The notes under the pieces are model-generated. The model saw only the letters and a program-made list of their open reading frames with translations, did not search any database and was not told where the DNA came from. Both the position numbers and the translations under genes were made by a program. Positions 43,329 through 61,188 of a DNA stretch of 61,188 nucleotides are shown one piece after another. Source of the DNA: an uncultured Gemmatimonadales bacterium (GTDB taxonomy: Bacteria > Gemmatimonadota > Gemmatimonadetes > JACCXV01 > JAHWKZ01); the NCBI GenBank assembly GCA_964619975.1, contig CAZUIY010000061.1, positions 1-61,188 on the forward strand. Direction: 5' to 3'. Within the stretch, counting starts at the first letter, position 1. Every line of letters starts with the position of its first letter.

Positions 43329-43363
43329 TGGGTTGAGGGTTCTATTCTAATATCATAAAAAAA

Positions 43364-43645: not shown

Positions 43646-43646
43646 T

Positions 43647-43826: not shown

Positions 43827-43830
43827 GATG

Positions 43831-45506: not shown

Positions 45507-45625
45507 TTGAATTTTTCTTTTAGTTTTTCGTCACCTTCTTCGCCTACCCACTTCTGAGGTGGACGGCGCTTTTCAGTGAAAGCCTCGTCGTGGAGTTCTC
45601 GTAAGTAGTCTGATTTACAATACAT
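45503..45625 (-). CDS. 40-aa hypothetical protein not in the ORF track
   Basis: Coupled at both ends (TAATG and ATGA overlaps). Confidence 0.45.
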   Translation of the reverse strand: MYCKSDYLRELHDEAFTEKRRPPQKWVGEEGDEKLKEKFK

Positions 45626-46449
45626 TAAAATGGCAAATCGTCCTGTTCATCCTCGTCCTCAACCTGTTCTTCAAAAGTTCCTCCCCTGTGATCGGTTGGC
45701 TCCTGACGGCTTCGCAGTCTTTCGGATTCGTCCTGAAGCATATCCTGACCATCTTGTGATCCGGCTTGGCTTTCGGCGTACTCATGCTTGTAACCTGCGT
45801 CTGCTGCTGTCGGAATTTGCTGCACTGTCATTTTCTGCGCATTGAAAAATTCCTTCAGTAATTTAGCCTGTTCCATAGCTGCATTATCTTCCTCTTCGCT
45901 GGCGTCTTTCTGTACGAACAATGGAACTTCATAATCTACCTTGCCCATTTTTTCGGGCCGACTTCCAGCGAACTCAATAACACCATGACCAGTAGTCTTT
46001 TTATTCTTGTAGCACTCTTTGGCAAACTCGATCCACCCACCAAGGGCTGCTCCGTACATACAAATACAAACGATCCTGAATCCGCTTTTGGTTTCCAGCA
46101 TGGCGTAAATATCGGTGCTGAATTTACCGCCAATGCCTGTAACCTGAGATTTGATCTCTGCCCATGTTCCGGTAGCGATGTGGTCTTTTTTCATGTTCCT
46201 CACCTTCAGGATGCCGTCAGTGATGTCCAAGACTTGATTGGATATGATTGAGCATTCTTCGGCTTTGTGAAATCCTCGAACACTTTTCACTTCTTCGAGA
46301 ACCAGGAAGCGGAGTTTCTTTACCGGACGGTTTTTGTCGGATCCGTCAAACTCTTTGTCGTAGTAGGTAAAGCATTTTTTATCTGAACTCCATTCGAGCC
46401 ATATTTCTGCGGGATTGGGAACTTGCTTGTCCCGGTCTAATCTTGACAT
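45625..46449 (-). CDS. Putative single-stranded DNA-binding protein
   Basis: Beta-rich core; acidic tail ending EDEDEQDDLPF (SSB-type C-terminal motif). Confidence 0.65.
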   Translation of the reverse strand: MSRLDRDKQVPNPAEIWLEWSSDKKCFTYYDKEFDGSDKNRPVKKLRFLVLEEVKSVRGFHKAEECSIISNQVLDITDGILKVRNMKKDHIATGTWAEIKSQVTGIGGKFSTDIYAMLETKSGFRIVCICMYGAALGGWIEFAKECYKNKKTTGHGVIEFAGSRPEKMGKVDYEVPLFVQKDASEEEDNAAMEQAKLLKEFFNAQKMTVQQIPTAADAGYKHEYAESQAGSQDGQDMLQDESERLRSRQEPTDHRGGTFEEQVEDEDEQDDLPF

Positions 46450-46485
46450 GATAATTTTGGTTTAGTTTTTTTTGAGTTGAGATTT

Positions 46486-46536
46486 CAAATGTAGTGATTT
46501 ACCTGTTGGGTGATGTGGTTTTAACAGTTTTTAACA
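46486..46536 (-). promoter_or_regulatory. Promoter: TGTTAA-N4-TGTTAA-N27-TACATTTG
   Basis: Read directly, upstream of the SSB-like gene. Confidence 0.75.
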
Positions 46537-46549
46537 GGTGTTGGTATTC

Positions 46550-46990
46550 TCATCCAATATCCTTTCGAGTCAGGTGGTAAAGGTGAATTGCGTCGGCCTC
46601 GTCGTCGGAATCGCCTAAATAGCCGTATTGTTCTTTCGCTGCCTGAACCATTGATTCCTTGTTCGCGTTACCCTTTCCCGTGGCAAACTTCTTGATCTCG
46701 GTAGCGGAATAACAAGCCAGATCCAATCCTGCTTCAATGCAAAGCTCTTTGAGTACACCAACCATTTCGGATGCAACCATGATGCTCGACTTGAACCTTC
46801 CGGCAGGGCGCTCATATGATATCAACTCGATCCCTTCGAGTTCGACCAACTCCTTTACTTTGGATTTGAACCGGACAACACGCATTCCTTCGCTTTCTCC
46901 GCGATTGGGCTTGAGGTTCCAGGTTCCACTTGCTGTTTCGGTTTTCCAGCCAGTTGTCGTTGCGATGTCAAGTGCTAAAATTTTCTTCAT
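46550..46990 (-). CDS. ruvC: RuvC-like Holliday junction resolvase
   Basis: ILALDIATTTGW, ISYER, ATEIKKFATGKGNANKESM, DDEADA. Confidence 0.85.
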   Translation of the reverse strand: MKKILALDIATTTGWKTETASGTWNLKPNRGESEGMRVVRFKSKVKELVELEGIELISYERPAGRFKSSIMVASEMVGVLKELCIEAGLDLACYSATEIKKFATGKGNANKESMVQAAKEQYGYLGDSDDEADAIHLYHLTRKDIG

Positions 46991-47159
46991 GGTTGTTTGT
47001 TTTAGAATATATTTTCAAATTCAATTCTCGTTTTCTCTGCCGTTTCATCAACAAGTGGAGCACTTCCATTTCGGATAGCCCGTACTCCTGAATACGTACT
47101 TCTCCTTTTTCATCCGATTCAATCAAAAATGTGTTGTTCATTGGTCTGAGGGTTGAGGG

Positions 47160-47606
47160 TTAATATCTGAAGTCTGTAAAGTGAATAATTGCCATTGGTT
47201 CTGATAGGTCGTATTTAGCAAACCAGTCTTTGAAGTCTCGTTTGGATAGCCCGTCGTTTTTCGCTAAGAAGCCGTAACCGCCGCCGTATTTCCCGCCAAT
47301 AACGAATCGGTGAATATTGTATTCAAACGATAGTTTCTGAATCCCTATCCCGTCCGCTTTGTCAAAAACGAAACACTCTCTTTGCTTTGAATTGTATGGT
47401 TTACCCGCCCACACCCGAACCGATAACACGGCTTCTCCGGCTTCGATCTTTTCAAATCGTTTCCGCCACAACTCATAGTTCCCGCGAATGGTGTGAATCT
47501 TTTCCTTTGCCCAAATTGATTCCACAAAGTTTGTCGGCTCACCGGCTCGTGGGTGTGTCTTTGGGAATTGCTCTGAAATGGTGAGTACGTAGGTTGATTT
47601 TTTCAT
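47160..47606 (-). CDS. Conserved Bacteroidota-phage protein (possibly ASCH/PUA-like)
   Basis: FPKTHPRAGEPT.F..KIHTIR.NY..W..LSVR.W.GKPY.SKQ..NDGLS..DFKDWF. Confidence 0.7.
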   Translation of the reverse strand: MKKSTYVLTISEQFPKTHPRAGEPTNFVESIWAKEKIHTIRGNYELWRKRFEKIEAGEAVLSVRVWAGKPYNSKQRECFVFDKADGIGIQKLSFEYNIHRFVIGGKYGGGYGFLAKNDGLSKRDFKDWFAKYDLSEPMAIIHFTDFRY

Positions 47607-47827
47607 GTCAGTAATCGTTTAAGTTCATTTGTTGCCGCGTTCATCTCTCGCTGTATCTCCCGCAAAGAAGGAGTTTGACGAGGAACCTGGTGTCGATATG
47701 CACGACAAATTCCAGTGGCATTGATAAATCCTTCACACTTTCCGCAGTAGTTCGCTGTCCGACCAAGAGCGGTTGTTGATTTCATGGGTTCCGGATCCTC
47801 GCCGCAGTGCTTACACTTTTTCATCAA
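47603..47827 (-). CDS. Small zinc-finger-like protein
   Basis: CxxC..CxxC. Confidence 0.55.
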   Translation of the reverse strand: MMKKCKHCGEDPEPMKSTTALGRTANYCGKCEGFINATGICRAYRHQVPRQTPSLREIQREMNAATNELKRLLT

Positions 47828-49914
47828 TTAAAGTTTAATTGGTCAATATCCATTTCTTCATCTTCTGTTGTAAGATCGAAAGAGTTATCAGGCTTTATCG
47901 CTGTTTCGTGGTGTGCGGTGTTGGGTTCACGAGTGATAGTTTCTTGCTTTATTTTTATCTCAGGATGATTCTTTGCCCACTCAGGTATTACTTGCTCCTG
48001 TTTACCCGTCTCAGGGTTGTTCCTAAATGCGAATTTTCCGTTTCTAATGTCATGCCAATGCTTCACGGGGTCGAAACCTTCCAGTGTCTCAAATCCGGTA
48101 ACGTATGGCTTTGCTCGAAGTTGAACGGGTTGGTCTTTTGTTGTTGGTTTCCCGCCTGTTTCAGTTTCTTTAATTTTCCTGACATGAATATCCGTAATGT
48201 TCCAATCCGTAGGATGGTCTACTATCCTGTGAATAGTCCAGAAATCATCTGCCTTGTTACTGAATTTCCCACCGCCTTCAGTGTGTGCTTTCATTGGTGG
48301 TCGCGCGTAACCATCGCCGTCAAACATTCTCAGGGCTTCAGTTACGGCGTGGCAATTCACGATTATACTTAGGTCATTGGCGGCTCCGAATTGCTTCAGA
48401 GCATTGACAGCTGTGTAGTGGAATGAATGCTCATTGACACCGATCGGAACGTCGAGCGAGTTGTACGGGTCAATCATTGCCATGCTGTTTTTCCGAACTT
48501 TGTTTGCAGCCCTGAACATTTCAATGATGTCTCGGTAATTGTACAAATCTTCTTTGTTTTTGATGATTTGGAAATGCTTTTTTACAAACGCTCCCGCCTC
48601 TTTTCTTTTGACCGCTGACATTCCCTTGTAGCTTTCACCCCAATAAAACTCAGATAGTTTCCTGACGACAAACCCATGCCCGTTTTCACCGGTGTAGATG
48701 ATCGAATTTAAGCCGTGAAACATTGCTCCGAGCAGCATAATGAACCATATCACTACCGACTTACCTACGTTGTCATGGCCGTTGATAATTAACAGCGTCG
48801 CAGATTTGAACAACCAGTGTTTATCCAGTTCGGGAATACCGGTAGTTTTACCCATCGGTAAAGTGCCGTTGGCCGCCATTTCCAGATACTCGGAATAATC
48901 TTTTTCGTCTGCTAAGAAATCTGTGACCGGTGTTTCTTCAGTGATTTTTGGCTGCACGTATTCGACCGGCTTTGTCGGTGTGCTTTTCACCGGTTCCATC
49001 CGGTCGCCGTAACCTTCAGCGTACAGTTTCTTTGCGGCTTCATTCCAATCTCCACCACATTCGAGCATCGCGTACACCGCGTATGGTCGGTATGCTTTCT
49101 GCGGTTCAAATTCTGTTGAGGTCGTGAATACACTGAACCAACCCCTACCTTCATCCCAATTGCCCGAATATGCCGCGCTTGTGGTCCCAGGTCGTTTAAG
49201 TAGCGTTTTATCGCCTTTTTGCTTCACAACTACCCATTGGTGCCGTTCCAGCAATCCAACAACGTCTGCCTTCTCGTTGTAGTCGTCAAACGGGGTCAGG
49301 TCTGCAATGTTCCGCGTTTGTCTCTGTGATGGTTTCTTTTCCTCTTTGATTACTTCATTGAACGATCGGCACACACTGATAAGGGTTTCCCGTTGATCAG
49401 GTGTAATTTCTTTGATGTCGTCGAGACTTCCATAAGTCACAGTGTAACCTTCCGTTGGGGCCACAGCAAAGTAACCGCCTTCACCGCGCGTTTCGATTAA
49501 TACTTTCACCTTTTCACCGGTCGTCTTTTCTTCATCCGTGGCCAGTCTTTGCGCCAACTTCAGGTTACCTTCAATCTCGCTGCACCGGTAGATCATGTGA
49601 TAACCACCATTGCGCGTTGTCTGCACGGTCATGAGCGGTAAAATGGTTTCGTCTATTTCGTTTATAGCTTTTTTGAGTTCCGGCCAAAGTTTACCGGTCA
49701 GGTCGTACTTACAATCCACGTCAATGCCTTCTACTCCACCAGATAATTTACCACAGACCATACCCACACCATCACCATTCAGCGGAAAATCTTCAGTTGA
49801 GGTCTGCCAATTTTCAACTATTGGAATTTTGGTTTTTGAAATCGGTATGAGCTTAATTGACATAGGGGAACATTTCAGGGTTGGTCTTAAAATGATGTTG
49901 GATGATCTTGACAT
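47824..49914 (-). CDS. Bifunctional AEP primase(-polymerase) / SF4-like helicase
   Basis: Prim-pol motifs GIDVDCK and TTRNGGYH; helicase TGIPELD..INGHDNVGKS..MIDPYNSL..IVNCH..GGGKFSNKAD..HVRKIK. Confidence 0.85.
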   Translation of the reverse strand: MSRSSNIILRPTLKCSPMSIKLIPISKTKIPIVENWQTSTEDFPLNGDGVGMVCGKLSGGVEGIDVDCKYDLTGKLWPELKKAINEIDETILPLMTVQTTRNGGYHMIYRCSEIEGNLKLAQRLATDEEKTTGEKVKVLIETRGEGGYFAVAPTEGYTVTYGSLDDIKEITPDQRETLISVCRSFNEVIKEEKKPSQRQTRNIADLTPFDDYNEKADVVGLLERHQWVVVKQKGDKTLLKRPGTTSAAYSGNWDEGRGWFSVFTTSTEFEPQKAYRPYAVYAMLECGGDWNEAAKKLYAEGYGDRMEPVKSTPTKPVEYVQPKITEETPVTDFLADEKDYSEYLEMAANGTLPMGKTTGIPELDKHWLFKSATLLIINGHDNVGKSVVIWFIMLLGAMFHGLNSIIYTGENGHGFVVRKLSEFYWGESYKGMSAVKRKEAGAFVKKHFQIIKNKEDLYNYRDIIEMFRAANKVRKNSMAMIDPYNSLDVPIGVNEHSFHYTAVNALKQFGAANDLSIIVNCHAVTEALRMFDGDGYARPPMKAHTEGGGKFSNKADDFWTIHRIVDHPTDWNITDIHVRKIKETETGGKPTTKDQPVQLRAKPYVTGFETLEGFDPVKHWHDIRNGKFAFRNNPETGKQEQVIPEWAKNHPEIKIKQETITREPNTAHHETAIKPDNSFDLTTEDEEMDIDQLNFN

Positions 49915-50839
49915 AAGAATCTTGTAACTTTTCTTCCATTACAAACACAGCTACTTCCTCTGTTTTGCGCGGATCGATTTTATTCCGGATAAGCCTGTCA
50001 AGGTACGTCTCACCTTCTTTGAATTTAGTGTGATCGTATTTTAAAGTGGGTATAGCTGACTGCGCCCGTTTGGTTTCAGATAGGTAGCCGTCAAACTTGG
50101 TGGGACCAAACAGTGTTTCAGGCCTGAGATACTTCGACATTTTAGTGTCGTTCGACCATTCCCGCACCTTTAAGTCAATAACAGCTTTCAAATCCTGTAC
50201 GGTCGCGCCTTCAATTATGCGGCCACTGATAAACTTCCTGTGTGCTTTGGTGGATAGTTTGAAATTCGCACCGGCCTTTTGGTTGAGGTAGGTTAAACTT
50301 TCATCAATTTCAAGTTTACGAAGATTTTTAGCTTCGTCGGCCTCGCGCGCGCCAACACTCACGCTTGCGGTGGGGCTGTTTTTCGTTTTACTCGGAGACT
50401 CACTATCGCCCCCTTGGGGGGTAGGGGGGCATTGTTCTTTACTTCTTTTGTTCTTTACTTCTTTAGTTGTTGCCCTCTTCCTGCCCTCTTCCTGCCCACC
50501 ATCTGCCTTACTGCTTGCCCCTTCATTGTCTTTAGATTGTAATTTATCCCATTTACGTAGGGTTATAAGCTGCCCTTCGCGTGCCTTTTCGCGTGCCACC
50601 TCACCGCTACTAATTAATTTATCCATCGCAACTCTAACTTGTTTTACCGACATTCCAGTGTGCTCGGCTAACTTCGGAAAAGATGTTACTATTTCGCCAG
50701 GTTTTACATCAATACCTTTCCACCTCTTGTTTTCATAATTCACCGCGCAAAGAAGGTACGTTAAAAGACGTGTGGCGTTGTGGTCATCCCACCACTCCCA
50801 ATCAATTAAAGTCCTATGGAGTTTTACCCATCCTATCAT
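49853..50839 (-). CDS. Replication initiator (winged-helix N-terminus, Phg_2220_C-like C-terminus)
   Basis: GWVKLHR.L.DWEW..; C-terminal YLNQK..F..R..EG.T..D...VID.K..EW..M.KYLRPETLFG.KF..YL. Confidence 0.8.
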   Translation of the reverse strand: MIGWVKLHRTLIDWEWWDDHNATRLLTYLLCAVNYENKRWKGIDVKPGEIVTSFPKLAEHTGMSVKQVRVAMDKLISSGEVAREKAREGQLITLRKWDKLQSKDNEGASSKADGGQEEGRKRATTKEVKNKRSKEQCPPTPQGGDSESPSKTKNSPTASVSVGAREADEAKNLRKLEIDESLTYLNQKAGANFKLSTKAHRKFISGRIIEGATVQDLKAVIDLKVREWSNDTKMSKYLRPETLFGPTKFDGYLSETKRAQSAIPTLKYDHTKFKEGETYLDRLIRNKIDPRKTEEVAVFVMEEKLQDSYVKIIQHHFKTNPEMFPYVN

Positions 50840-51165
50840 TGTCCAGCGAATTGAGGTAGGTAAATTTTATCAGATTTAGATCGATTGCATTTATCGCACA
50901 GTATTTGGCAATTCTCAGGTAAATTTCTCCCGCCTTTCATTACCGGAAAAACATGATCGATAACCAGTTTATCGGTAGATCCACAATATGCACAAAGGGA
51001 ATTATCCTTCAGCATTACTTTTCTCATATCCCTTGTGAAAAGACTCGCGTACGTGCGTACACTTCGAGACACGCTTAATCTAATATGGCTCTTGTGGCTA
51101 TATATAGACCTGTAATATTTTATCCAATCAAAAACTGTCCAGGAGTAGTAGTCTCTAAATTTCAT
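50836..51165 (-). CDS. HNH endonuclease
   Basis: CAYCGS..L.IDHVFP..KGG.N..ENCQILC.KCN..K; likely start is the ATG at 51165. Confidence 0.85.
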   Translation of the reverse strand: MKFRDYYSWTVFDWIKYYRSIYSHKSHIRLSVSRSVRTYASLFTRDMRKVMLKDNSLCAYCGSTDKLVIDHVFPVMKGGRNLPENCQILCDKCNRSKSDKIYLPQFAGQ

Positions 51166-51473
51166 TTCGAAAAACTCCCCCAAACAGCAAAGGAAACCCC
51201 AGCGACTCCGGACGGAGAAGAATTTTGGCGATGCTGTAAGGGGGTGTTTTAAATATCATATTACTAGGGTTTCGACGCACAATGTAGAACTTCTTCCCCA
51301 AATCCAAAACTTATGTAAGTCGAAGTTATTAACACGTTCATGTGTAAAAATCACCATTTACACGTAACCACTACTGTTTCAACGTGCCATGCCAGAAATA
51401 AATTTTGACAGAATTTCCCGACCAGTTACACAAGTTTTGGGTGGATTTACACTTTCTTTGGGTTTCGGGCATG

Positions 51474-51502
51474 AAAAAACCCCGCCAGAATGAATGACGG
51501 GG
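51474..51502 (-). terminator. Intrinsic terminator
   Basis: CCCCG/CGGGG stem plus T6 on the - strand. Confidence 0.55.
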
Positions 51503-51552
51503 CAGAAGTGGGGAGAAAGTTCTACGGGTTTTTTATGTTCCTTCAGGGAGCA

Positions 51553-51882
51553 TTATAACGGCTCGAAATTATCCTCAAAGTATTGTTTAGCAACCAACCA
51601 TTGGTCGAGGTGGTTGGTTGGATTCCGAGCAATCATATCTCCTATATGCGGGCTTCCATTTTTCAAGTCGGCATCGCTAATAGACACGGATATCCAATTA
51701 TCGCTTGTTTCATGAACAATTATCATTTTGTGTTTTTCGAATTGTTCAATATCGATAACATCAACAGGTCTTAATTCGGCAATTTGTTTTCTTCGAAACT
51801 TAGTAAAATTTTTCATCTCATTCGTTTTTCCAAATCTTTGGGTGTGGTTATTTATTACCAACACTTTCATTTGAATCTTCAT
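51553..51882 (-). CDS. Conserved phage hypothetical protein
   Basis: GDMIARNP.NH.DQWLVA..YF.DNFEP; the start is probably the internal MKNFTK. Confidence 0.65.
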   Translation of the reverse strand: MKIQMKVLVINNHTQRFGKTNEMKNFTKFRRKQIAELRPVDVIDIEQFEKHKMIIVHETSDNWISVSISDADLKNGSPHIGDMIARNPTNHLDQWLVAKQYFEDNFEPL

Positions 51883-52135
51883 ACAAGGGCTTCCCTGTAA
51901 ATGGACAGAATTTCGCGTACACCATTATTTCTTTGTATGACTGCGTAAAAGTTTCCTTTCCTTTTTTACCCTTCTTTCCGCGATACATACAAGGTAGTGC
52001 TAAATGCCGGTCTTCTGATCCGAGCCAAAAAGTAGAGGCATTGAATCCGGCTTCAGGATCACCGGTTTTGTCTCTGACTTTTTGTTCAACCGCTTCTATT
52101 GCCTTCCAGTTTTCTTTGATGTTGTTTTCCATCAT
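51848..52135 (-). CDS. Hypothetical protein
   Basis: Ends with a FCPFTGK zinc-ribbon-like motif. Confidence 0.6.
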   Translation of the reverse strand: MMENNIKENWKAIEAVEQKVRDKTGDPEAGFNASTFWLGSEDRHLALPCMYRGKKGKKGKETFTQSYKEIMVYAKFCPFTGKPLYEDSNESVGNK

Positions 52136-52297
52136 TCATTTGTTTTGTGCCACTTGCTTGGTGGCGGGGTTATTGTTGCATGCCTTTAAATATCCGTGAA
52201 ATCCCTTTCAGAGTGATCCATCCTATGAACCACACTACCGATAAGGATAATGCGAGCGCGAGTATTGCGTATAGAATTGTCATTATTTCTGTGAGTT

Positions 52298-52735
52298 TCA
52301 TTGTTCGATTGTGTTGAGGTCAACAGCAAGTCCGTGTTGGATAAGGTTGTGGATGTCGAAGTGCCACTCGAACAACAGCCTAACTATCCAGTAAGGGCAT
52401 AACATTGAGTTCCACCATGTGTCAATTGAATCAATAGAGTCTTGAATATAGGTGTCACGTAAGTTTTTATTTTTTCCGAGTCTCTTTAATGTGTCCATCG
52501 GCACAAAAGTCTCCCCGTTGTGTGTGATGGGCTTGGTGAGGTCGGATAATGGGCGAAGAATGGGTTTTTCCTGCAACCTCAAACAGCCGGAAATGGTTCT
52601 TAAAGCTAAGGGGTATGCGTATTTATCATATTCACCATCATCTTCAAGTCCGAACGGCATAGGGTACTTGCCGCGAATCTTCAACCCATACGGCAGATAA
52701 CCCGCCAAATGTTCTAAAGTAAGTTGTTCCATCAC
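52298..52735 (-). CDS. Conserved Bacteroidota-phage hypothetical protein
   Basis: LEHLAGYLPYGLK..KPILRPLSDLTKPI..L.EWHFDI..LI..GLA.D.NT. Confidence 0.75.
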   Translation of the reverse strand: MMEQLTLEHLAGYLPYGLKIRGKYPMPFGLEDDGEYDKYAYPLALRTISGCLRLQEKPILRPLSDLTKPITHNGETFVPMDTLKRLGKNKNLRDTYIQDSIDSIDTWWNSMLCPYWIVRLLFEWHFDIHNLIQHGLAVDLNTIEQ

Positions 52736-52781
52736 TTCTCGTTTTTGGTTAGTATTTCTTTGATTTGCTTTAAATTGTCTC

Positions 52782-54587
52782 TCAATTCTTGAAATTTGGC
52801 CGCGAACCTTGCACGGCGGGTTCTCCGGTGACGGGGTGGGTGTCGGAGGCGTAGCGATATTCTTGCGTTTGAGTTTTCCAAGGGTAGGAGTGTGTTTTTA
52901 CGTGGTGATCAACCATTCTAGGCTTCATTTCTTTTATGTAGTCACCAACCCACATCATCCTCGGAAACTTGTCAGCTTCCGGTTCCATCTTGCTGTCCTG
53001 CGCGGGTTCGATTATGGTCGCCCATTGGCCGTTCAGGAATAAGAAAACACCTTCTACAGAGACCGTACAGTCATTATCGCTATCACACAACTCAATTTCA
53101 ATATCCAACTCTTCAATAGTTCTATTGTTTCCGCTCCACGTGCTTTCAACCACATCACCAACCTTGTACTTTTTCTCGGTCATTTCGGTCAACATCCGCT
53201 CAACCTCTTTCGGGTTGGCGGGGGTGAGGTCATCGTATTCATGAACAGAAACCCACGGTGAATGAAATTGATTACTATTGTCAAGCCATTCTCCATTAGT
53301 TCGAACTCCATAACCGTGAATTCCCCCCTTGTCGTTTATTGAAGTCGCCATAAACATACCTGTCTCGGAATACTTCCACCACTTCCCAACCCGATCAACT
53401 TTCAGAAGTTCACGGGCTCGGTCGTAGTTGCCGTGAGCAACTTCATTCCAGAACTGGTAGCCTTCATCCTTATCATCCCACTTTCCAATTGCAGCAACAG
53501 CGGCAGGCAAATCTTCAGGGTGCAACGTGTAATATTCGGACGTCTCATCCACCTGCCTCAAAGCCCTTTCCGCAATGTCCTCCGGTAGTGTTTTCAGGAA
53601 GTCGGTGAGAGTGGCGCGGCGACAATGCTCTATACGCACTCCGTTCGGCACCCCTAATTCTGGTCGAGCCCAAGGCTTCTCGTTAATACCTTGGATACTT
53701 ATTTCTTCTATCTTAAAAATTGGTATAAACTCTTCCTTACGAAAATCATCTTCCGATTTGTCAGCGTAAGCCATCATCCCCACCTTCAACTCATCTTCGG
53801 TTGGTTCTAGCTCGTTCAAACAAGAATCTTCTTTTTCTTCTTGTATTCTCCTGTCTTCAAAAGATTCGATAAATATAGGTGTGTCGGATGCGTACTCCCA
53901 AGCACTCAATAGTTTTTCTTTGAAGGTTCCCAATTCATCCGAGTCTTGAAACTCAAAGCCTCCAGTTATCTTCCATTCGACATCAGGTATCCCAACAGAT
54001 TGGTCGCCTGAAAACACAACGTAAAACCCATCAATACTCAACGGTTTTTGTTTTTCTGACCCAAACACAAGGGCGCGGGCTTCGGAGAGGGGGATTTCGG
54101 TGCGGGTTTTCGCATCATAATGCGCTTCACCTGCTATACACCCATACCAAAGCTTCCGTTTGAAATCGAATCCAAAAGACTCCCACCCATCAACCCTAAG
54201 TACTTCATGAATCCGGTTCACCGTATCTCTTTTGTTGTCGCTTTTAATAGCGCGTCCTGATAATTTGTGTTTCACCTGCCCAGTTTTCACATCCGACGAC
54301 TGTTCATTTTCACCCCAAGAAAACTCAACCCAATGCTCTTTACCGTCGAAACACACCACACACTTAATACCGATACCACGAAGAACTTCAAAGTCCTGGT
54401 ACTCATCTTCTGTTGGAGGTTCCGGCGGTGTAGACGCGTAGTAGTACTTCAACGATGTTTTTCCTTCTTTCATAGCCCTCAGTATCGAATCGCATTTATG
54501 CCTTAACCCGCTACGTGTATCGATATCCAGTAACAACGATTCAAGGGACTTCTTGATCTGTTTCTGCGGCTTTTTCTCAGTACTCAT
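52782..54587 (-). CDS. 601-aa multi-domain hypothetical protein
   Basis: First gene of the leftward operon; appears to be a string of short unrelated domains. Confidence 0.75.
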   Translation of the reverse strand: MSTEKKPQKQIKKSLESLLLDIDTRSGLRHKCDSILRAMKEGKTSLKYYYASTPPEPPTEDEYQDFEVLRGIGIKCVVCFDGKEHWVEFSWGENEQSSDVKTGQVKHKLSGRAIKSDNKRDTVNRIHEVLRVDGWESFGFDFKRKLWYGCIAGEAHYDAKTRTEIPLSEARALVFGSEKQKPLSIDGFYVVFSGDQSVGIPDVEWKITGGFEFQDSDELGTFKEKLLSAWEYASDTPIFIESFEDRRIQEEKEDSCLNELEPTEDELKVGMMAYADKSEDDFRKEEFIPIFKIEEISIQGINEKPWARPELGVPNGVRIEHCRRATLTDFLKTLPEDIAERALRQVDETSEYYTLHPEDLPAAVAAIGKWDDKDEGYQFWNEVAHGNYDRARELLKVDRVGKWWKYSETGMFMATSINDKGGIHGYGVRTNGEWLDNSNQFHSPWVSVHEYDDLTPANPKEVERMLTEMTEKKYKVGDVVESTWSGNNRTIEELDIEIELCDSDNDCTVSVEGVFLFLNGQWATIIEPAQDSKMEPEADKFPRMMWVGDYIKEMKPRMVDHHVKTHSYPWKTQTQEYRYASDTHPVTGEPAVQGSRPNFKN

Positions 54588-54618
54588 TTTTCCGGGGTTT
54601 AATTTGGTTTATTCCCTC

Positions 54619-54669
54619 CAAATGTAACCATACACCAAAAACAAAAAACAACTTTAACAGAGTTTAACA
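54619..54669 (-). promoter_or_regulatory. Leftward operon promoter: TGTTAA-N4-TGTTAA-N27-TACATTTG
   Basis: Read directly. Confidence 0.75.
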
Positions 54670-54783
54670 AATCCAGCAAACCATTCCGTGGTAATCCGTG
54701 ACTCAACAACCAGTTCAACGGAAAACCCTGTAGTGGTGTGTGGTATAGGTTACTTATGCGTTCGGGGGTGGGGTCGTCACCAG

Positions 54784-54826
54784 GAAAACGGACCCCCAAA
54801 CAGGCCGGGGGGTCGATCCGGTTTTC
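54784..54826. repeat. GC-rich imperfect inverted repeat in the divergent intergenic region
   Basis: GAAAAC-GGA-CCCCC ... GGGGG-...-TCCG-GTTTTC. Confidence 0.5.
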
Positions 54827-55103
54827 ATCCTGTTTTCGCTCGGATTCAGTGGTTACGTTTCCTGCAATAAACGTAACAAACCCCTCTATCATGCTGTGTA
54901 TCATTTCTATCAGTACATGTTATTACTGTGCGCCGCTCTACGTGTACGAAAATCTGTTTATATTTGAACTGTGATACAGTCTGAATCCTATTTGAACGGT
55001 CTCGGCGGGTCTCAGCCCGAGAATAGCGAGACAACAAAACGGACAACCAACTGACGCACAACAGACAAACAGCAAACAATTATTTACCTACCAATTGAAC
55101 GCT

Positions 55104-55633
55104 ATGAGCCAAATAAAGACGGCAAAACCAAAGAAAACCGGTTCCAGGAAGAAAACCGGACAAAAAAAGGCGGGCTCGGGTAAAAAAAAGGTTTCAACGC
55201 GGAAAGTTTCGCGCGTACGTTTGGAGGGAGTAGCCACCTACGAAATACCTACGGAAGAGCGTATAAATGCCACCTTTGAGCGGATGAAATGTCCCGAATA
55301 CCAATCAAAAAGCATCGCTAAGCCTATTGTTTGCGGTCACAACGCTAATGCATGGAGTAAATTGATGTCTCAAAAGGGAGTTACACGCACCACCCTGCTG
55401 AATTGCTTGTTTATAACACGAACCACCTATAAGCGAGCGCTTGAATATCCCAGTCAGTTTTTGACGCTCCATGACCTTTTTTTTTTGCCGCTATTACGGG
55501 CGTGAGCGTAGGAGAGCAGATAGAACTATTATTTATGGGCGCTGCAATAGGTGGGAACGGCAATGGTCCTGCGCTTCGCGCTTATGACAGTTCCTCGGGC
55601 AATAGTCTTTCTTCCCTTGTCTCCGAGGATTGA
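55104..55633 (+). pseudogene. XRE/Cro-like HTH regulator interrupted by a frameshift at a T10 tract
   Basis: With T11 the ORF reads ..TLHDLFFFAAITGVSVGEQIELLF.. to the stop at 55633, completing an XRE helix; T10 at 55477-55486 stops it at 55505. Confidence 0.6.
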
Positions 55634-55823
55634 GGCTGTCATATGTCTGCTCACCGGTGGAATCCATCCATTTGTATATATTGTTATGCGTTCCATTTAT
55701 AGTGGTAAATAATTGCGGTGTGTTCGTAGTGTAGTGAAAGATTTATTTCAGTGTTTTCGGGGGTTGTAGAGCCAACAAATGTTAAAATTCACCTTACCTC
55801 TTGCAAGTGCGCCTATTTACGCT

Positions 55824-55831
55824 TATGTTTG
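55824..55831 (+). promoter_or_regulatory. Early promoter -7 element
   Basis: TTG-N20-TATGTTTG, with a single TGTTAA at 55780-55785. Confidence 0.6.
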
Positions 55832-55857
55832 TTGTGTTCAAATTAATCATTGAACAA

Positions 55858-55947
55858 ATGGCTATCCTCTTGAAAGAAAACCAGCAAGATTGGGTTGATA
55901 AAGCAATCGAAGAACGTGAAACTTTAAAAACGAACGGAATCAAATAA
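55858..55947 (+). CDS. 29-aa first early ORF, not in the ORF track
   Basis: MAILLKENQQDWVDKAIEERETLKTNGIK, directly after the promoter and before a strong hairpin. Confidence 0.4.
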   Translation: MAILLKENQQDWVDKAIEERETLKTNGIK

Positions 55948-56001
55948 CCCCGCAGCACCGGATCTTCATTTGTCCGGTGACTGCTCCAAATCTAAACAGC
56001 C

Positions 56002-56208
56002 ATGAAAGACCTATTCGAACACTACCAAGAATTACCACAGCAAGTACAGCACATCATTCTCGCGTTTGATAACGACGGAATGACCTACGACGACTGTAAA
56101 ACGGCATTAGCCCAATTAGAACCTCTGGGATATACTTTTGAGTATGGGCTGGATGCTGTGCCGTATGGATTAAGGAAAACTGAACCCCAAAATGTTAAAC
56201 TATGTTAA
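56002..56208 (+). CDS. Early hypothetical protein
   Basis: aaacagccATG start; Y..C....LE.LGYTFEYGLDA.PY.L. Confidence 0.7.
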   Translation: MKDLFEHYQELPQQVQHIILAFDNDGMTYDDCKTALAQLEPLGYTFEYGLDAVPYGLRKTEPQNVKLC

Positions 56209-56243
56209 ACCCTTGTGCATTGGGTAGTAATTATGCACCTTTC
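56193..56243 (+). promoter_or_regulatory. Early promoter: TGTTAA-N4-TGTTAA-N27-CACCTTTC
   Basis: Same 27-nt spacing as the other sites; degenerate -7 element. Confidence 0.55.
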
Positions 56244-56281
56244 ACCCATTAACCAGAAAAAACACAACTAAATTAAAAGCC

Positions 56282-56485
56282 ATGATTAAGCAATACAACA
56301 TTATCGGATACCTGAAAGGAAATGAAGTCGGGGTAATAGACACCGACGGAAAATTCAATACTTCGGATCGGTTAGACTTTAATAGCCGGATGTTTTTTGA
56401 ATCCAAAGAAGAGGCACAGAAGTTTATTAACCGATTGAGCATCGAAGAAGAAAATCACCCCGAATTTGAATACTCAATAGAATAG
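56282..56485 (+). CDS. Early hypothetical protein
   Basis: aaaagccATG start. Confidence 0.65.
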   Translation: MIKQYNIIGYLKGNEVGVIDTDGKFNTSDRLDFNSRMFFESKEEAQKFINRLSIEEENHPEFEYSIE

Positions 56486-56511
56486 TAATATAATTTAATC
56501 CAACAAAAGCC

Positions 56512-57072
56512 ATGAGAGAAGTCATAATTGAATTATCAAACCACTTCGGAGTAAACGTCGAAGAAATCACAACGGGGACCAATGATTACCCCGAGAACCT
56601 ACAGCCAGTACTGACGGACTTTGAATCCATCGACCATTTAAAGGCAGTCCGCGAGGAATTGGAAAGTACAGGCCATAAGTGCATAGAAATCGAAATGCAC
56701 AAGAAAAACGGTTGGAGCCTTTGGAACTACGTGCGCTACGAATCATTTCCAGGAATGTACCGAAAGGCCAAAGACAGAGATTGGACATTCGACATTGACA
56801 CCAACAAGAAGCGAAAAGCGCAGCGAAACCACGTTAAAGTCACTTTGTTCGGGGATAGACCCGAAAACCCCTCAGAAGCCAAGGAAATAAGCGACAGCAT
56901 AGTTTCTGAACTTCCAGAGAACGTAGGAACGGTGACAGTATTTTATGACCCTGATAATGGTTACGCGTTTGAACGATGGGCTAGTGACCAAACCACGGGA
57001 TATTACGAAGATACAAATCATTATAAAATAGCCCTACTGATTGAGTCAGCACCAGATCAGGAAGAAGAATAA
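56512..57072 (+). CDS. Early hypothetical protein
   Basis: 186 aa; aaaagccATG start. Confidence 0.7.
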   Translation: MREVIIELSNHFGVNVEEITTGTNDYPENLQPVLTDFESIDHLKAVREELESTGHKCIEIEMHKKNGWSLWNYVRYESFPGMYRKAKDRDWTFDIDTNKKRKAQRNHVKVTLFGDRPENPSEAKEISDSIVSELPENVGTVTVFYDPDNGYAFERWASDQTTGYYEDTNHYKIALLIESAPDQEEE

Positions 57073-57133
57073 AAAACTCATGGCTGAGTCCCGAAAGCCG
57101 GTTATCCGGTGAGTAGGGTAAGCCATTTCACAC

Positions 57134-57358
57134 ATGAAAAAACACGCCAAAAACCACAAGCATCTCCGCAACTGGTTCAGCCACAAAAAGAACTTTTGGG
57201 AGAAAGTAGTGGAAGATATTTACTTTAGCGTTCGATGTGTCAATTCAAAATGGATCCTCGTTATACGCCGGAACGGGGAAAGAAAAGAAATACCGGCGAA
57301 CAACTCATTCCATGCGTACTGCATGGCAAATAAGTACATCCAAAAAATGAACTCATAA
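57134..57358 (+). CDS. Early hypothetical protein
   Basis: Co-directional small basic ORF. Confidence 0.55.
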   Translation: MKKHAKNHKHLRNWFSHKKNFWEKVVEDIYFSVRCVNSKWILVIRRNGERKEIPANNSFHAYCMANKYIQKMNS

Positions 57359-57369
57359 AATAAATCACG

Positions 57370-57669
57370 ATGGAATATTCAGAATTAGAGAAAAAGATCC
57401 TCCAAAAAGGAAGAGCAAACTTCAGAAAAGAGTTGGAAGAAGCGTCTAAACCTATGTTGGAAGTTCTAAAGAAATACCGCATGCGCCATGATCACGAACT
57501 CCTAAATAAAATCACATTATCGTATCCTTATGATAGTTCAATCTATTACCAGCGTGCCGTTAGAATACCCAATGATAGTGAACTCACAAGCCTTGACGGC
57601 TTACTACTTGACCTATTTATGGAAGAAGTAAAAGAGCTGAAAGGCAGAATTGACGAATTAGGTATTTAA
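57370..57669 (+). CDS. Early hypothetical protein
   Basis: Co-directional ORF. Confidence 0.6.
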   Translation: MEYSELEKKILQKGRANFRKELEEASKPMLEVLKKYRMRHDHELLNKITLSYPYDSSIYYQRAVRIPNDSELTSLDGLLLDLFMEEVKELKGRIDELGI

Positions 57670-57673
57670 AACC

Positions 57674-57880
57674 ATGAAACACCTTTTACAATTCTTACTT
57701 CTGGCAGGGATAATCTTTGCCGCAACTTTTGGAATCAACTACCTTTTCATCCAGGCAGACCCAACAATGAACTTTGATGGTGTCCGGGAACCCGTGGCAT
57801 ACGGATCTATGATGTTCGCCATTCTAATCTCTGGCGCGATATTGCTCTACCAACCACCGAAAATAAAATTCACCCGATAA
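57674..57880 (+). CDS. Early two-TM membrane protein
   Basis: Two hydrophobic segments. Confidence 0.6.
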   Translation: MKHLLQFLLLAGIIFAATFGINYLFIQADPTMNFDGVREPVAYGSMMFAILISGAILLYQPPKIKFTR

Positions 57881-57890
57881 AATCAAGAAA

Positions 57891-58154
57891 ATGGCACACA
57901 CAATCAATACCAAAGATATTGCAGAATGTATTGAAGTTCTGACCACAATTAAACCTGAAGAAACCATAACTCCGGATCGCTACGAACTCCGTTTAGGACG
58001 AAAAGACCCTTTAGAAATGGGTTATGATAAAAGCCGGAGATTAGCACCCGAAGAACAGTTAAGCCGTAGCGCTCACATTAGAATGCTGCAAGAGGTTTGC
58101 GAAATGATGAAATTAGGAGACCAATTTATAGAATGGTGTCAAGCAAACAGATAA
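57891..58154 (+). CDS. Early hypothetical protein
   Basis: Co-directional ORF. Confidence 0.6.
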   Translation: MAHTINTKDIAECIEVLTTIKPEETITPDRYELRLGRKDPLEMGYDKSRRLAPEEQLSRSAHIRMLQEVCEMMKLGDQFIEWCQANR

Positions 58155-58252
58155 CGAAATGAAAACCCTCTGCACACAATTTGAGAACTGGTTCGACAAG
58201 CACTTCGGATGGTTCTTTGAGAACGGAATGAAGCACCAAAACAGAAACCAAG

Positions 58253-58537
58253 ATGGCCTCTGAATCAAATATGACTAGTCACCGCAAACCCCTTACAGAC
58301 TTCCGCAGGGCCACACCCAAGGATATCGGATGGGATAAAACCATCTTCCTGGTATGTGATGAAAACAGCCGGAACGTCATTTTGCACGAAATGAAGATCA
58401 AAAAGCTGAACTTATCCGAGGTCCCTCCAAAAGTAGGACACAACGCATTCCAGCACGATACCGAGAGAGACAACGAAAACGCAGAAATGATGCGACGACT
58501 GAAAAAACTTGCAGGGCATTATCTTGTTATGACATGA
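58253..58537 (+). CDS. Early hypothetical protein
   Basis: Co-directional ORF; start uncertain. Confidence 0.55.
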   Translation: MASESNMTSHRKPLTDFRRATPKDIGWDKTIFLVCDENSRNVILHEMKIKKLNLSEVPPKVGHNAFQHDTERDNENAEMMRRLKKLAGHYLVMT

Positions 58538-58716
58538 AAACTATGAGCCATGAACCCTATAACAAAAATAGAGATAGCAATTTTACGCGATTCTCAAAGC
58601 ATCTACCAGTTGAACGCACGATGGGAACTACTCACCGAAAAAGAGCAGAAAAACAGGCGTCTCAGGAAAATAAAAGTCGTGATGCTTAGAAAATTGAGAA
58701 AACAACAACCGAACCC

Positions 58717-59052
58717 ATGAAGAAATTAAACAGAGGTGATAAAATTTACCTTGACACCGAAAAAACAAAAGAATCGAGTGTAAACACATACTTAGGCTGT
58801 AGAGATGGCATTGTAGAAGTTTATGAATACATCGACACATCGGGATACGGCTCTAAAACACGATTGTTTCTTTGTAGAAACACCAAACACGAATGCACGT
58901 CTATTATTCGTCAAACATGGAATATTATCGTAAATCAATGGCTTGAAGAAGAAATGAGTTTTGATTCGGATTCGTTTGAATACCTAGAAGCCATTATTAA
59001 CGGAAGAAAAGACGAGTCAGGAGGAACATACACTCTTATACGCGATTATTAA
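58717..59052 (+). CDS. Early hypothetical protein
   Basis: Co-directional ORF. Confidence 0.6.
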   Translation: MKKLNRGDKIYLDTEKTKESSVNTYLGCRDGIVEVYEYIDTSGYGSKTRLFLCRNTKHECTSIIRQTWNIIVNQWLEEEMSFDSDSFEYLEAIINGRKDESGGTYTLIRDY

Positions 59053-59063
59053 AAACCAAAGCC

Positions 59064-59423
59064 ATGAAATCAAAAGAAATTTATAAGGAGATCAGACGCA
59101 TAACCGACGAACATCACGCTTACGTCGATCAAATGCTTGCAGTGGCTAAATGGATAAAATCCGAGTTTATGCCTAAGCGCTCTAAACAGACGTTTTTTAA
59201 TCCAAAATTCAACAAGCCAAAACCATCGCCGGATGACGTTACATTCAGTGTTGACGTGCTTATAATTGACGAAAATGAACTTCACGGAGTAGCCTGTTAC
59301 TCTTTTGAAGATGAAAAATGGATATTTCATACTGATACGCTCGTTGATTACGATGAAGTGGGCCATGAAACACAATGGCGATGGTATTACCCAACATTCA
59401 CAAAGGAAGATGTAAACTTTTAA
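59064..59423 (+). CDS. Early hypothetical protein
   Basis: aaagccATG start; DUF551-like C-terminal Trp-rich segment. Confidence 0.6.
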   Translation: MKSKEIYKEIRRITDEHHAYVDQMLAVAKWIKSEFMPKRSKQTFFNPKFNKPKPSPDDVTFSVDVLIIDENELHGVACYSFEDEKWIFHTDTLVDYDEVGHETQWRWYYPTFTKEDVNF

Positions 59424-59425
59424 CC

Positions 59426-59650
59426 ATGAAAACAGAAATCACCAAATTCAATCTCCGACCCCTGCAGTACCTCTCAGGACTGAAATCCATGATCTACACC
59501 CAGGCATTAATTGAATGCGCCCTACACGGACAGATGGTGCCATTCCTGCAGCTCATAGAACTCAGCAAAAGGAAAGCCAAGGCTCAGAACATCGTGGAGG
59601 AACAAGGACAAGTGGAACTCAATAAATTTTTACGGATTATTCAAAACTGA
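59426..59650 (+). CDS. Early hypothetical protein
   Basis: The ATG at 59426 follows the upstream stop. Confidence 0.55.
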   Translation: MKTEITKFNLRPLQYLSGLKSMIYTQALIECALHGQMVPFLQLIELSKRKAKAQNIVEEQGQVELNKFLRIIQN

Positions 59651-59654
59651 AATT

Positions 59655-60056
59655 ATGAACAAAGAAAACCTTTTAAAAGCAGCCGACTACATCGAAACCA
59701 TTCCGCAGGAGAAGTTTGATATGCGCGATTGGCGCAGCGGTCAAACGTCTACCCATAAATGCTGTAGCGTGGGATGTATACTGGGACATTGCACTATACT
59801 TGACGAAAAAGAAAACGTTTTTAGATTTAAGAGATGGGATGGCCATATTGATTTTTACGATTGGGCTGCGTCTTTTTTCAGCTTACAGAGGTATTCCGAC
59901 GAAATGACATGGCTGTTTCGTTCACAATGGGGGCATAATAACACCGACAACACCCCCACCGGTGCAGCCAAACGAATACGGCACTTTGTCGAACACGGAC
60001 TACCAGAAAACTGGAGAGAACAAATGAACGGAAACGCACCCCTCTGCTACCTATAA
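59655..60056 (+). CDS. Early hypothetical protein
   Basis: L.KAADYIE..FDM..W..C.SVGC.LGH. Confidence 0.65.
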   Translation: MNKENLLKAADYIETIPQEKFDMRDWRSGQTSTHKCCSVGCILGHCTILDEKENVFRFKRWDGHIDFYDWAASFFSLQRYSDEMTWLFRSQWGHNNTDNTPTGAAKRIRHFVEHGLPENWREQMNGNAPLCYL

Positions 60057-60210
60057 TCTCAGAGCCATGCAACGACTGACCCCACACCGACAAAAAGCAA
60101 TGGAGAACTACCGGAAATGGCTTGTATGGACTCCGTTTGCTCACTGGCAACACTGGAAAGAATGGGAAACAAAACGACAACGAGGAATTATACAATAAAA
60201 CCCAAAACAA

Positions 60211-60585
60211 ATGAAAAAGTCAAAAACAAGAGAGGAATTATTGATTAATACTTGTAAGTTTTACAACTCAGAAAATAGAGGTATTGATAAGCTGTATGAT
60301 TGCCGATACATGACTGATGAAAAAAAACGTTGCTCAATAGGTAGGGAGGTGTCTACCAATAAAGCTGTAGAATTGGAAAGAGAAGGCGGTACTGTTCGTC
60401 ATGTGTTCTCACTCCTCCCTAAAAGACTACAATCAATGGGTGAAGACTTCTTGTTATCCATTCAACAGCTACACGATTCAGGATTGAATTGGACAAAAGA
60501 TGGATTATCCTACGCTGGTGTAGAAAAGGTTATGGGTCTAATCCGTGAGTACAAATTAAACGTCACCAAAGAAGATTTGACATGA
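60211..60585 (+). CDS. Early hypothetical protein
   Basis: CRY.T....RC.IG..FL..IQQLHD pattern. Confidence 0.65.
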   Translation: MKKSKTREELLINTCKFYNSENRGIDKLYDCRYMTDEKKRCSIGREVSTNKAVELEREGGTVRHVFSLLPKRLQSMGEDFLLSIQQLHDSGLNWTKDGLSYAGVEKVMGLIREYKLNVTKEDLT

Positions 60586-60736
60586 ACCAACACCACCTCA
60601 GAGAACGCTACACCGGATACGCCATGATCGCCGGATGCCTGATTGCACTAGCAGCCTGTTACCTTCTTATTTCAGCCATCATCAAACCGAAAATGGATTG
60701 GATGTGCCCGGCAAAAACTCAAATCGAAATCAAACT

Positions 60737-61039
60737 ATGAGAAAACTCAAAATACCCAAGCACCTCGACAAGAGACGAAAGTTGACGGACGACCAACGAG
60801 CGGAAATCAAGAGACTCTTTGACTCCGGTCAAACCAATAAGTCTGAACTGGCAAAAAAGTTCAACGTAGGACGAAAGCTTATTGGATGCATTGTTCATCC
60901 CGAAAGAATGGAGCGTCACCTGAGCCAGAACAGGGAGAGAAACCGCGGAAAAACGGACAAAGAAAGAAACGCCGCAGCACAAACCCGGTACAGGGAAAGG
61001 AAAAAAGACCTGTTCCTGGATGGAAAGATCAGGGAGTGA
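60737..61039 (+). CDS. HTH DNA-binding protein
   Basis: RRKLT.DQ..EIK.LF..G.TNKSELAKKFNVGRKLI.CIV.PE; likely start is the ATG at 60737. Confidence 0.7.
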   Translation: MRKLKIPKHLDKRRKLTDDQRAEIKRLFDSGQTNKSELAKKFNVGRKLIGCIVHPERMERHLSQNRERNRGKTDKERNAAAQTRYRERKKDLFLDGKIRE

Positions 61040-61060
61040 TTGTCTGTCCGCAGGCAATTG

Positions 61061-61188
61061 AGCCTGAATGATCCGCCGTATAATGCGCGGGTGGTGCACG
61101 GTGAGGAACGAGCCGAAAGCATCCGAAAGCATTTACGAGTGTGCCACCTGAGCATTATACGCTGTTAGGCGATAGGTCTCTGAGGGTA
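61061..61188 (+). ncRNA. Candidate structured RNA of about 190 nt that continues across the circular junction to base ~133
   Basis: 61068-61080 pairs with 115-127; TATAATGC/GCATTATA and GGGTGG-GCAC/GTGC-CACCT inner helices. Confidence 0.5.
61118..61188. repeat. Terminal direct repeat, right copy
   Basis: Identical to 1-71. Confidence 0.95.

Follow-up and report, generated by a model that had tools for sequence, protein, structure and literature searches.

The phage contig analyzed here carries, across the join of its circular sequence, a non-coding element of ~180 nt (61066..61188 + 72..128) that folds stably, is conserved in other genomes, has moved between them, and matches no Rfam family. 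It is probably a new functional RNA element, outside the catalogued RNA families. Coordinates refer to the window, by which we mean the whole stretch of DNA that was analyzed, at its full length of 61,188 nt; because the window is a circularized contig, the element has to be read across the join. It is present as a single copy in the genome. We infer that it is a + strand RNA with two-state folding and a role in cis, and the reading that we favor, tentatively and with slightly less than even confidence, is that of a horizontally exchanged, ~180-nt cis-acting + strand RNA module that has two folds and lies ahead of a variable small gene.

The phage contig and its circular join

Portal, virion protein, and primase-helicase genes identify the contig as that of a phage; ARAGORN detected no tRNA or tmRNA in the window. 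Its first 71 nt are exactly identical to its last 71 (Table 1). The join is therefore an assembly overlap of 71 nt, which leaves a unique circle of 61,117 nt.

The phage is present in one public run, from soil (X1). In the Logan unitigs of this run, the main contig (60,966 nt, equal to window 112..61077) has a depth of 56.7, and the junction is contained in a separate 211-nt unitig (61048..141) with a depth of 95.5, to which further contigs are joined at both ends. The alternative left neighbor reads AAAGTTCGG and then 61048-61077. The alternative right neighbor is a 938-nt contig that has 112-141 in common with the window, followed by 212 unlike letters and then by 359-385, again in common. 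The X1 soil sample contains a second, related genome with the exact 211-nt element and the 359-385 box; its left flank is another one, and where the window has the gene for a 58-aa protein it has a 212-nt cassette of different sequence. That this second genome shares the element, with different neighbors, is probably why the contig breaks there and why the 211-nt unitig has a doubled depth.

It should be noted that, given a junction inside a unitig common to two genomes, the circular phasing depends on the original assembler. A direct terminal repeat, or physical genome end, was considered and rejected: the double depth is that of a second genome with its own flanks, and other copies of the element are internal to contigs. 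The preliminary description took the structured RNA as support for the circular join being real. The join does agree with the Logan unitigs. It falls, however, within a repeat that a co-occurring genome also has, and the element is in itself weak evidence of circularity.

Occurrence, conservation, and mobility

When a run index was queried with the element alone, near-identical copies were recovered from at least 10 other public runs, and others were found on JGI/ENA contigs. The holders are runs from soil (X4, X15, and X16), sediment (X5-7), bovine sources (X8-9), and a freshwater metatranscriptome (X10), as well as X11-14; contiguous copies occur on JGI contig L010 and on ENA/JGI contigs L011, L015, and L017. 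A 5' portion that is 93%-99% identical is present in X4, X16, X5-7, X8-9, X10, X11-12, and the four contigs (L010/L011/L015/L017). Ten sequences were rebuilt from difference tables and aligned (alignment A2), and these agreed with loose-end read-outs where those existed. Conservation varies along the element: the 5' ~90-100 nt are 93%-99% identical, the next ~57-60 nt are 63%-88% identical with indels, and over the last ~25 nt conservation returns. Among all copies, the only changes at positions 61070-61117 are U61102A in L010 and G61112U in X16, and the bulk of the substitutions in the 5' domain fall in 1..21. In every copy with a recovered 5' end other than X15, the start base is 61070 (GATCCGCC...), preceded by ..AAC. 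The left flanks differ in all cases (9/9 read), and the right boundary differs among copies as well (123, 141, 150, or 166).

The exact 10-nt tandem had been interpreted in the preliminary description as two identical protein-binding loops. The tandem itself (CCGAAAGCAT at 61113 and 61123) is there, but it is kept exactly in the window, X4, and X5 only, and elsewhere takes the forms CCGAAACCAT/CCGAAAGCAT, CCGAAGCCAT/CCGAGAGCAT, and CCGAAGGCAC/CCAAAAGCAT, so the idea of two identical loops does not hold for the family. The search for homologs recommended at that time did find conservation in relatives; the size of ~190 nt proposed for the transcript is corrected here to ~180 nt, for an element present in a single copy. 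The one RNA-derived sequence is an unstranded metatranscriptome contig (X10), which includes the flanks and could be contaminating DNA. No inverted orientation of the element was seen in the contigs of 12 runs, although contigs hide rare forms.

Two groups of copies depart from this pattern. The X15 soil contig has bases 4-53 of the element only, with unrelated sequence upstream (..GTGCGTAAGTGTGCGTTGGCAAAT); the element may recombine as submodules, or a more distant branch of the family may exist. In the L010-type copies (L011 470-610 / L010 1060-930 (-)), ~130 nt replace the 3' arm and tail and contain two further hairpins (CUAUGC..GCAUAG and GUCCG..CGGAC), and part of this replacement also occurs in bovine run X9.

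The element had no match in INPHARED (blastn), was absent from IMG/VR, where pattern scans with five conserved words gave chance or coding matches only, and was absent from the 185,579 genomes of GTDB, with one chance match in an Acidimicrobiales MAG. A first scan of JGI for homologs was unproductive, and a covariance model of the element (R1), run against the collected sequences, returned no copies beyond its own members. Searches with the neighboring proteins (HTH, GroES-like, and 58-aa proteins) gave one short relative each, or none, and the relative found via the GroES-like protein has a different upstream region.

Some close relatives lack the element. In L004, whose HTH protein is 84% identical, the HTH stop codon joins window position 343 directly, and L012 and L014 have the same 85-aa upstream gene as L011 with the element absent. 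When L012 and L011 are compared, the inserted stretch is flanked by the microhomologies TAACG and ACGGC, 4 bases are replaced, and no target-site duplication is seen at the junctions (by eye). Unlike flanks, together with presence and absence in close relatives, establish that the element is horizontally exchanged between phages. Incidentally, N6/N4 methyltransferase genes lie at or near the site of L011's element in two relatives of the L011 phage (L012 347-1135 and L016 990-1661).

Predicted folds

The re-linearized 200 nt fold on the + strand at -78.4 kcal/mol, compared with -58.1 +/- 4.1 for 200 dinucleotide shuffles (z = -4.94), none of which is as stable (0/200). The reverse strand reaches -60.8 kcal/mol (z = -4.06), which is 17.6 kcal/mol weaker. 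A strongly folding non-coding element, as had been proposed, is thus present, and the pairings quoted for it are found where they were placed: ATGATCCGCCGTA (61068) is complementary to TACGGCGGATCGT (115) with one U.G pair (U61069.G126), TATAATGC at 61079 pairs with GCATTATA at 35 (=61152), and GGGTGG at 61089 pairs with CACCT at 28. The strings of the suggested alternative pairing, GTAGA (72) and ACTCTAC (111), are also present, and folding confirms that the competing helices are genuine.

The two ends of the element pair in a helix of 13-16 bp (P1). In the window its arms are 13 bp long with one U.G (G.T) mismatch, and in other copies they form 15 perfect base pairs (TAACGATCCGCCGTA). What lies inside P1 can be folded in two ways. 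Model B, which is the RNAalifold consensus and corresponds to the preliminary description, is a P1-closed, 22-bp hairpin (P2/P3) with a 39-nt apical loop, in which P2 pairs CGUAUAAUGC with GCAUUAURCG and P3 pairs CGGGUGGUGCAC with GUGUGCCACCUG. Model A is a three-way junction with a P1 of 14-16 bp, a left arm made up of Pa (AAUGC/GCAUU) and Pb (CGGGUG(G)/(C)CAUCCG), and a right arm, P3' (GAGUGUGCCAC/GUGGCUCACUC), that bears the variable domain. Model A is the minimum free energy structure in five of five full-length copies with diverged 3' domains (window, X4, X6, X10, and X12), and in the full RNA it is favored over B by 3-9 kcal/mol; the 5' 101 nt alone form hairpin B, at about -39 kcal/mol. 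Given the preference for A in the full RNA and for B in the first 101 nt, a co-transcriptional switch from B to A is plausible. No common fold was found for the variable 3' domain.

No pair of model A or B has a compensatory double change. Of the cells, 92.5% are paired under model A and 97.2% under model B, but because the helices hardly vary, covariation cannot choose between the models; the structure therefore rests on thermodynamics and on the location of the substitutions. These are rare in the P2/P3 stems (2 of 44 positions, vs. 9 of 39 in the apical loop; Fisher p = 0.02). The change A42>G, in about seven of nine copies, retains a U.G pair that is possible on the + strand only, and hairpin B, because it has 4-5 G.U pairs, would function only as + strand RNA. 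Each of G2>C, U5>C, and U17>G adds or strengthens a model A pair, and the U25.U109 mismatch becomes a U.G pair in L010. In X5r3, A25 opposite U109 would pair, where base 109 is assumed from all other copies because the contig stops before it. The avoidance of stems, A42>G, and the pair-strengthening changes appear to lend the folds indirect support. The L010-type copies have 6 bp of P1 only and no tail, yet are unchanged in four samples.

Table 1. Features of the element and its immediate surroundings (window coordinates)
Feature	Coordinates	Strand	Remarks
Assembly overlap	61118..61188		Identical to window 1-71
Degenerate left box (AATTGAGCCTGAAT)	61056..61069	+	Imperfect inverted copy of tail box; other copies ..TTGCC..(T)AAC
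P1 5' arm (AAUGAUCCGCCGUA)	61066..61080	+	AAC in all other copies, where the window's U.G becomes C-G
5' strand of conserved hairpin, model B (P2 CGUAUAAUGC, P3 CGGGUGGUGCAC)	61077..61099	+	
Model A alternatives in 61077..61099	Pa 61082-86, Pb 61088-94	+	
Apical region, first half	61100..61117	+	
Apical region, second half	1..21	+	Tandem CCGAAAGCAT x2 = 61113-61117 + 1-15
Hairpin B 3' strand (GUGUGCCACCUG, GCAUUAUACG)	22..44	+	Bases 20-30 can instead pair with 104-114 (P3', model A)
Variable A/U-rich 3' domain	45..103	+	63%-88% identity among copies, indels, no common helix
P3' 3' strand (GUGGCUCACUC)	104..114	+	Conserved
P1 3' arm (UACGGCGGAUCGUU)	115..128	+	
Tail box	124..150	-	Reverse complement TTTCTATTCCTAATTTTGCCCTAACGA; perfect Bacteroidota -7 motif TAATTTTG
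58-aa cassette gene	164..340	+	3' of element
Promoter-like box	347..383	+	TTTG-N18-GAATTTTG, then CCCTAAC

Neighboring genes, boxes, and transcription

Upstream of the element is a gene for a 100-aa, HTH-only protein (60737-61039). Its start is most likely at 60737, with the 134-aa ORF call being too long; a 38-aa hydrophobic ORF (MIAGCLIALAACYLL..) at 60624-60740 (+) ends in an ATGA that overlaps this likely start. After the element come the 58-aa gene, a 71-aa gene (505-720), and the tandem GroES gene (833-1489). The location given earlier, in non-coding DNA between the HTH gene and the tandem GroES gene, is therefore right on the upstream side, but two small genes (164-340 and 505-720) intervene before the latter. 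In a sediment homolog of the 58-aa ORF, seven of nine substitutions are synonymous, a pattern that marks the ORF as a real gene under purifying selection. The ORF that follows the element varies among copies (MWLKY.. in the window, MKIDIE.. in X10, MMVKDLKQALE.. in X8, and an 89-aa protein in L011), and no family match was found for these.

All flanking genes are on the + strand, and the phage promoters are of the Bacteroidota type (TTTG...TAnnTTTG). No TAnnTTTG promoter was found between the element and the 58-aa ORF, by eye or in a strict scan, and no terminator or U-tract was found after the element. Since a real gene follows with neither a promoter nor a terminator in between, the element is presumably transcribed on the + strand together with that gene; for the same reasons, a leader or intercistronic RNA is favored. 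In X4, and less clearly in X5r3, the element lies directly 3' of a promoter-like box.

The tail box repeats the promoter-like box at 347-383 in inverted orientation; it is conserved beside the element and is also found without it. A degenerate ..TTGC..(T)AAC box survives to the left of most copies, and this accounts for the imperfect inverted ends of the element (33-nt arms, 76% complementary). The promoter-like box is common to several genomes in other runs and is identical over 41 nt in L004. Just 3' of it is a long hairpin (388-462, +), whose L004 counterpart is at 528-610; seven compensatory double changes separate the two sequences. The hairpin probably serves the 71-aa gene as a structured 5' leader, or else is an sRNA lying before it. 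The identity of the box in L004 and the covarying hairpin behind it make 347-383 probably a real promoter with a structured leader. The box pair (..CTATTCC..AATTTTGCCCTAACG) is inverted around the 58-aa gene, and occurs in several genomes of the sediment runs at a depth above that of its neighbors. In this, the box behaves like a recombination point of the PeSL (promoter-early stem-loop) type.

Identities considered

A gathering-threshold scan of the window with Rfam 15 placed no family at the element, including 6S, 6S-Flavo, Y RNA, tmRNA, ribozymes, riboswitches, HEARO/omega, and RAGATH. When both window ends and the contiguous L010 copy were scanned permissively, only chance matches to hairpin models appeared (E 0.8-10). 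The window's only Rfam match over the gathering score is an abiF RNA at 39262-39298 (-), with 54.5 bits against a threshold of 37.

We also considered whether the element is, or was, coding. Its first bases (GATCCGCCGTATAAT) encode DPPYN, and the 17-mer GATCCGCCGTATAATGC matched three methyltransferase genes in IMG/VR, at ordinary DPPY motifs. A methyltransferase remnant was rejected, as the peptide has no Pfam match. Coding in this frame was rejected too, as six copies have a TGA stop introduced by T17>G and no codon pattern is seen among the substitutions. Nor is there a link to the methyltransferase at the empty site of L012, which has DLPY and no similarity to the element. The DPPY resemblance thus appears to be coincidental. 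A 22-codon ATG..TGA micro-ORF in the hairpin was rejected as well: its substitutions are not biased toward synonymous ones, and stops interrupt it in L010 and X5r3 (alignment A2).

Among mobile and DNA-level elements, a MITE is a poor fit: terminal inverted repeats are present, but there is no target-site duplication, no precise empty site, only a single copy, and a varying right boundary. An inverton of the kind known from Bacteroidota fits poorly as well, given the single orientation in contigs and a neighbor that is a 100-aa HTH-only protein rather than a recombinase. A retron msr-msd was set aside because the neighboring small ORFs lack an RT domain. A replication origin with iterons was rejected: other copies carry degenerate versions of the 10-nt repeats, the GC skew tracks the direction of the genes without marking this site, and the existence of close relatives without the element means that it is not an essential origin.

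Competing explanations

In the cis-acting + strand reading that we favor, the carriers would be uncultivated phages with Bacteroidota-type promoters, and the element would be transcribed together with early or accessory genes, immediately upstream of a variable "cassette" gene. Hairpin B would form first, during synthesis; once the conserved 3' strand (104-128) had been made, its bases would rearrange into Pa, Pb, and P3', with P1 as the closing helix. The RNA would act on its own transcript: it might govern processing or stability, serve as an insulator, or form a switch-like leader of the gene that follows, and it would spread among phages by recombination, along with the short flanking promoter-like boxes. 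Several observations sit uneasily with this: the RNA evidence is limited to the unstranded X10 contig, neither fold has compensatory double changes, and L010-type copies persist with a 6-bp P1 and no tail. A ligand-sensing leader of the riboswitch type does not fit downstream genes that are mutually unrelated and not functionally coherent. Primary sequence is 93%-99% conserved across unrelated flanks and habitats, which suggests that a conserved partner is contacted and that structure is not the only constraint. This would suit a stand-alone, stable sRNA acting in trans, which would be cut at the P1 duplex (e.g., by RNase III) and whose target would be a conserved component of host or phage, for instance RNA polymerase, the ribosome, a nuclease, or a defense protein. 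Its paired 5' and 3' ends resemble processing stems, a promoter-like box stands directly before the element in X4 and X5r3, and there is precedent in the early non-coding RNAs of phi14:2 (10.1101/2020.03.07.982082). We nevertheless regard a trans-acting sRNA as unlikely, given that no terminator or defined 3' end follows the element, that no promoter precedes it in the window or in L011 (where the upstream stop codon overlaps the element's first bases), and that it matches neither 6S, Y RNA, and tmRNA nor other Rfam models. In a more specific proposal, to which we give a small but appreciable chance, the element would be the founding member of an undescribed phage RNA class, a bistable three-way-junction module in Bacteroidota phages whose invariant 5' domain binds a host machine (RNA polymerase, ribosome, or nuclease), and which serves as a put-like processive antiterminator, a host-takeover RNA, or an anti-defense RNA.

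The main non-RNA rival is a role at the DNA level, as a MITE-like unit, a recombination or operator site, an invertible segment, or an accessory origin, with the fold as a by-product of inverted repeats. The imperfect 33-nt inverted ends fit a mobile DNA element as well as they fit the cis-acting RNA, and to these are added the 13-15 bp of perfect terminal repeat, presence/absence polymorphism in many contexts, the good fold of the - strand (z = -4.06), the almost entirely Watson-Crick and hence strand-symmetric helices of model A, and an A/T-rich middle that adjoins 10-bp direct repeats. We judge this, too, to be unlikely: the element is single copy, with imprecise junctions (microhomologies and 4 replaced bases, and no target-site duplication by eye) and a right boundary that varies; no contig has it inverted and no recombinase or transposase gene adjoins it; its direct repeats are degenerate in other copies and close relatives do without it; and its 4-5 G.U pairs are kept, with A42>G tolerable only as + strand RNA. 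The conserved inverted promoter box at the 3' end, which also counts against the cis-acting reading, could instead drive an antisense RNA leftward from 140-124 (TAATTTTG-CCCTAAC), beginning at the P1 arm. This box has a perfect -7 motif and is conserved beside nearly all copies, its forward version (363-383) precedes the covarying RNA hairpin, and P1, P3', Pa, and Pb form on the - strand too. It has, however, no properly spaced -33 TTTG (the nearest TTG is 11 nt upstream), the - strand fold is 17.6 kcal/mol weaker, the best-conserved stems, P2/P3, would contain 4 A.C mismatches, and no terminator is present, so that we see only a slim chance of an antisense RNA. Finally, the element might have no function of its own, being recently spread hitch-hiking DNA or a gene remnant, for example of a DPPY methyltransferase: the DPPYN-encoding 17-mer did match three such genes in IMG/VR, and high identity could come from recent transfer. 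We consider this very improbable in light of the missing Pfam match, the TGA stops in six copies, the unrelated methyltransferase of L012, and conservation that is more uneven (93%-99% vs. 63%-88%) than recency alone explains.

Significance and comparison with known systems

To our knowledge, almost no regulatory RNAs are known from phages with Bacteroidota-type promoters, and the translation and transcription signals of these phages differ from textbook ones. Should the element prove to be a functional RNA, a new non-coding element, and one of unusually high conservation, would be added to those known from environmental phages of this kind. Because it is portable and always lies ahead of exchangeable small genes, it is a candidate handle on the expression of accessory (maybe anti-defense) genes. 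Its conserved core is a ready probe for finding such phages in metagenomes, and the practical yield is a defined 180-nt RNA with two testable folds.

Three described systems come nearest, none of them homologous to the element: for the RNA itself the long non-coding RNAs of phi14:2 and the processing hairpins of T7-like phages, and for the short boxes the PeSLs. Cellulophaga phage phi14:2 produces abundant, stable non-coding RNAs of unknown function from its early region (10.1101/2020.03.07.982082). As with our element, these are intergenic and lie in an early, rightward-transcribed region, in this case of a podovirus of Bacteroidota; in our case the RNA is a predicted one, and no sequence similar to the element was found in the phage collection.

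T7-like phages carry RNase III processing hairpins between the genes of a polycistronic early transcript. These are intercistronic, irregular duplexes of at least 20 bp with internal loops, in the early transcript of a podovirus, and the element offers two predicted counterparts, hairpin B (22 bp) and P1 stacked on P3' (about 26 bp). Unlike such hairpins, it is much larger and multi-branched, has competing helices, and is conserved in sequence beyond what a processing site needs. Among cis-acting switch and antiterminator RNAs are riboswitch leaders and the put RNAs of HK022. The element shares with these a helix that closes the structure, a core of high conservation, helices that exclude one another, and placement upstream of genes, as well as, in X4 and less clearly in X5r3, a location just after a promoter-like box. 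The element departs from them in its unrelated downstream genes, in involving no terminator, and in having no Rfam match and no covarying pairs.

The closest described systems are the PeSLs, the mobile regulatory cassettes of T4-type phages (Arbiol et al. 2010, PMC2839356; Comeau et al. 2014, PMC4122927). The element differs from them in several respects. At ~180 nt it is far larger, it is single copy (only the short boxes occur twice per genome), and no U-tract terminator was found to go with the Bacteroidota-type box at 347-383 and its inverted copy at 124-150. Its sequence is conserved across habitats and unrelated phages and not just within one genome, and its junctions are microhomologies rather than products of PeSL-PeSL exchange. 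The likeness lies in the arrangement: PeSLs are short, conserved non-coding modules with a promoter and a stem-loop, placed in plastic regions on either side of small ORFs that vary and are mostly unknown, and they serve as recombination points at which genes are shuffled among related phages. Here, variable ORFs likewise lie between short boxes, and the boxes at 347-383 and 124-150 bracket the exchangeable 58-aa gene, so it is the short boxes and the exchange of cassettes between them that the PeSL model fits.
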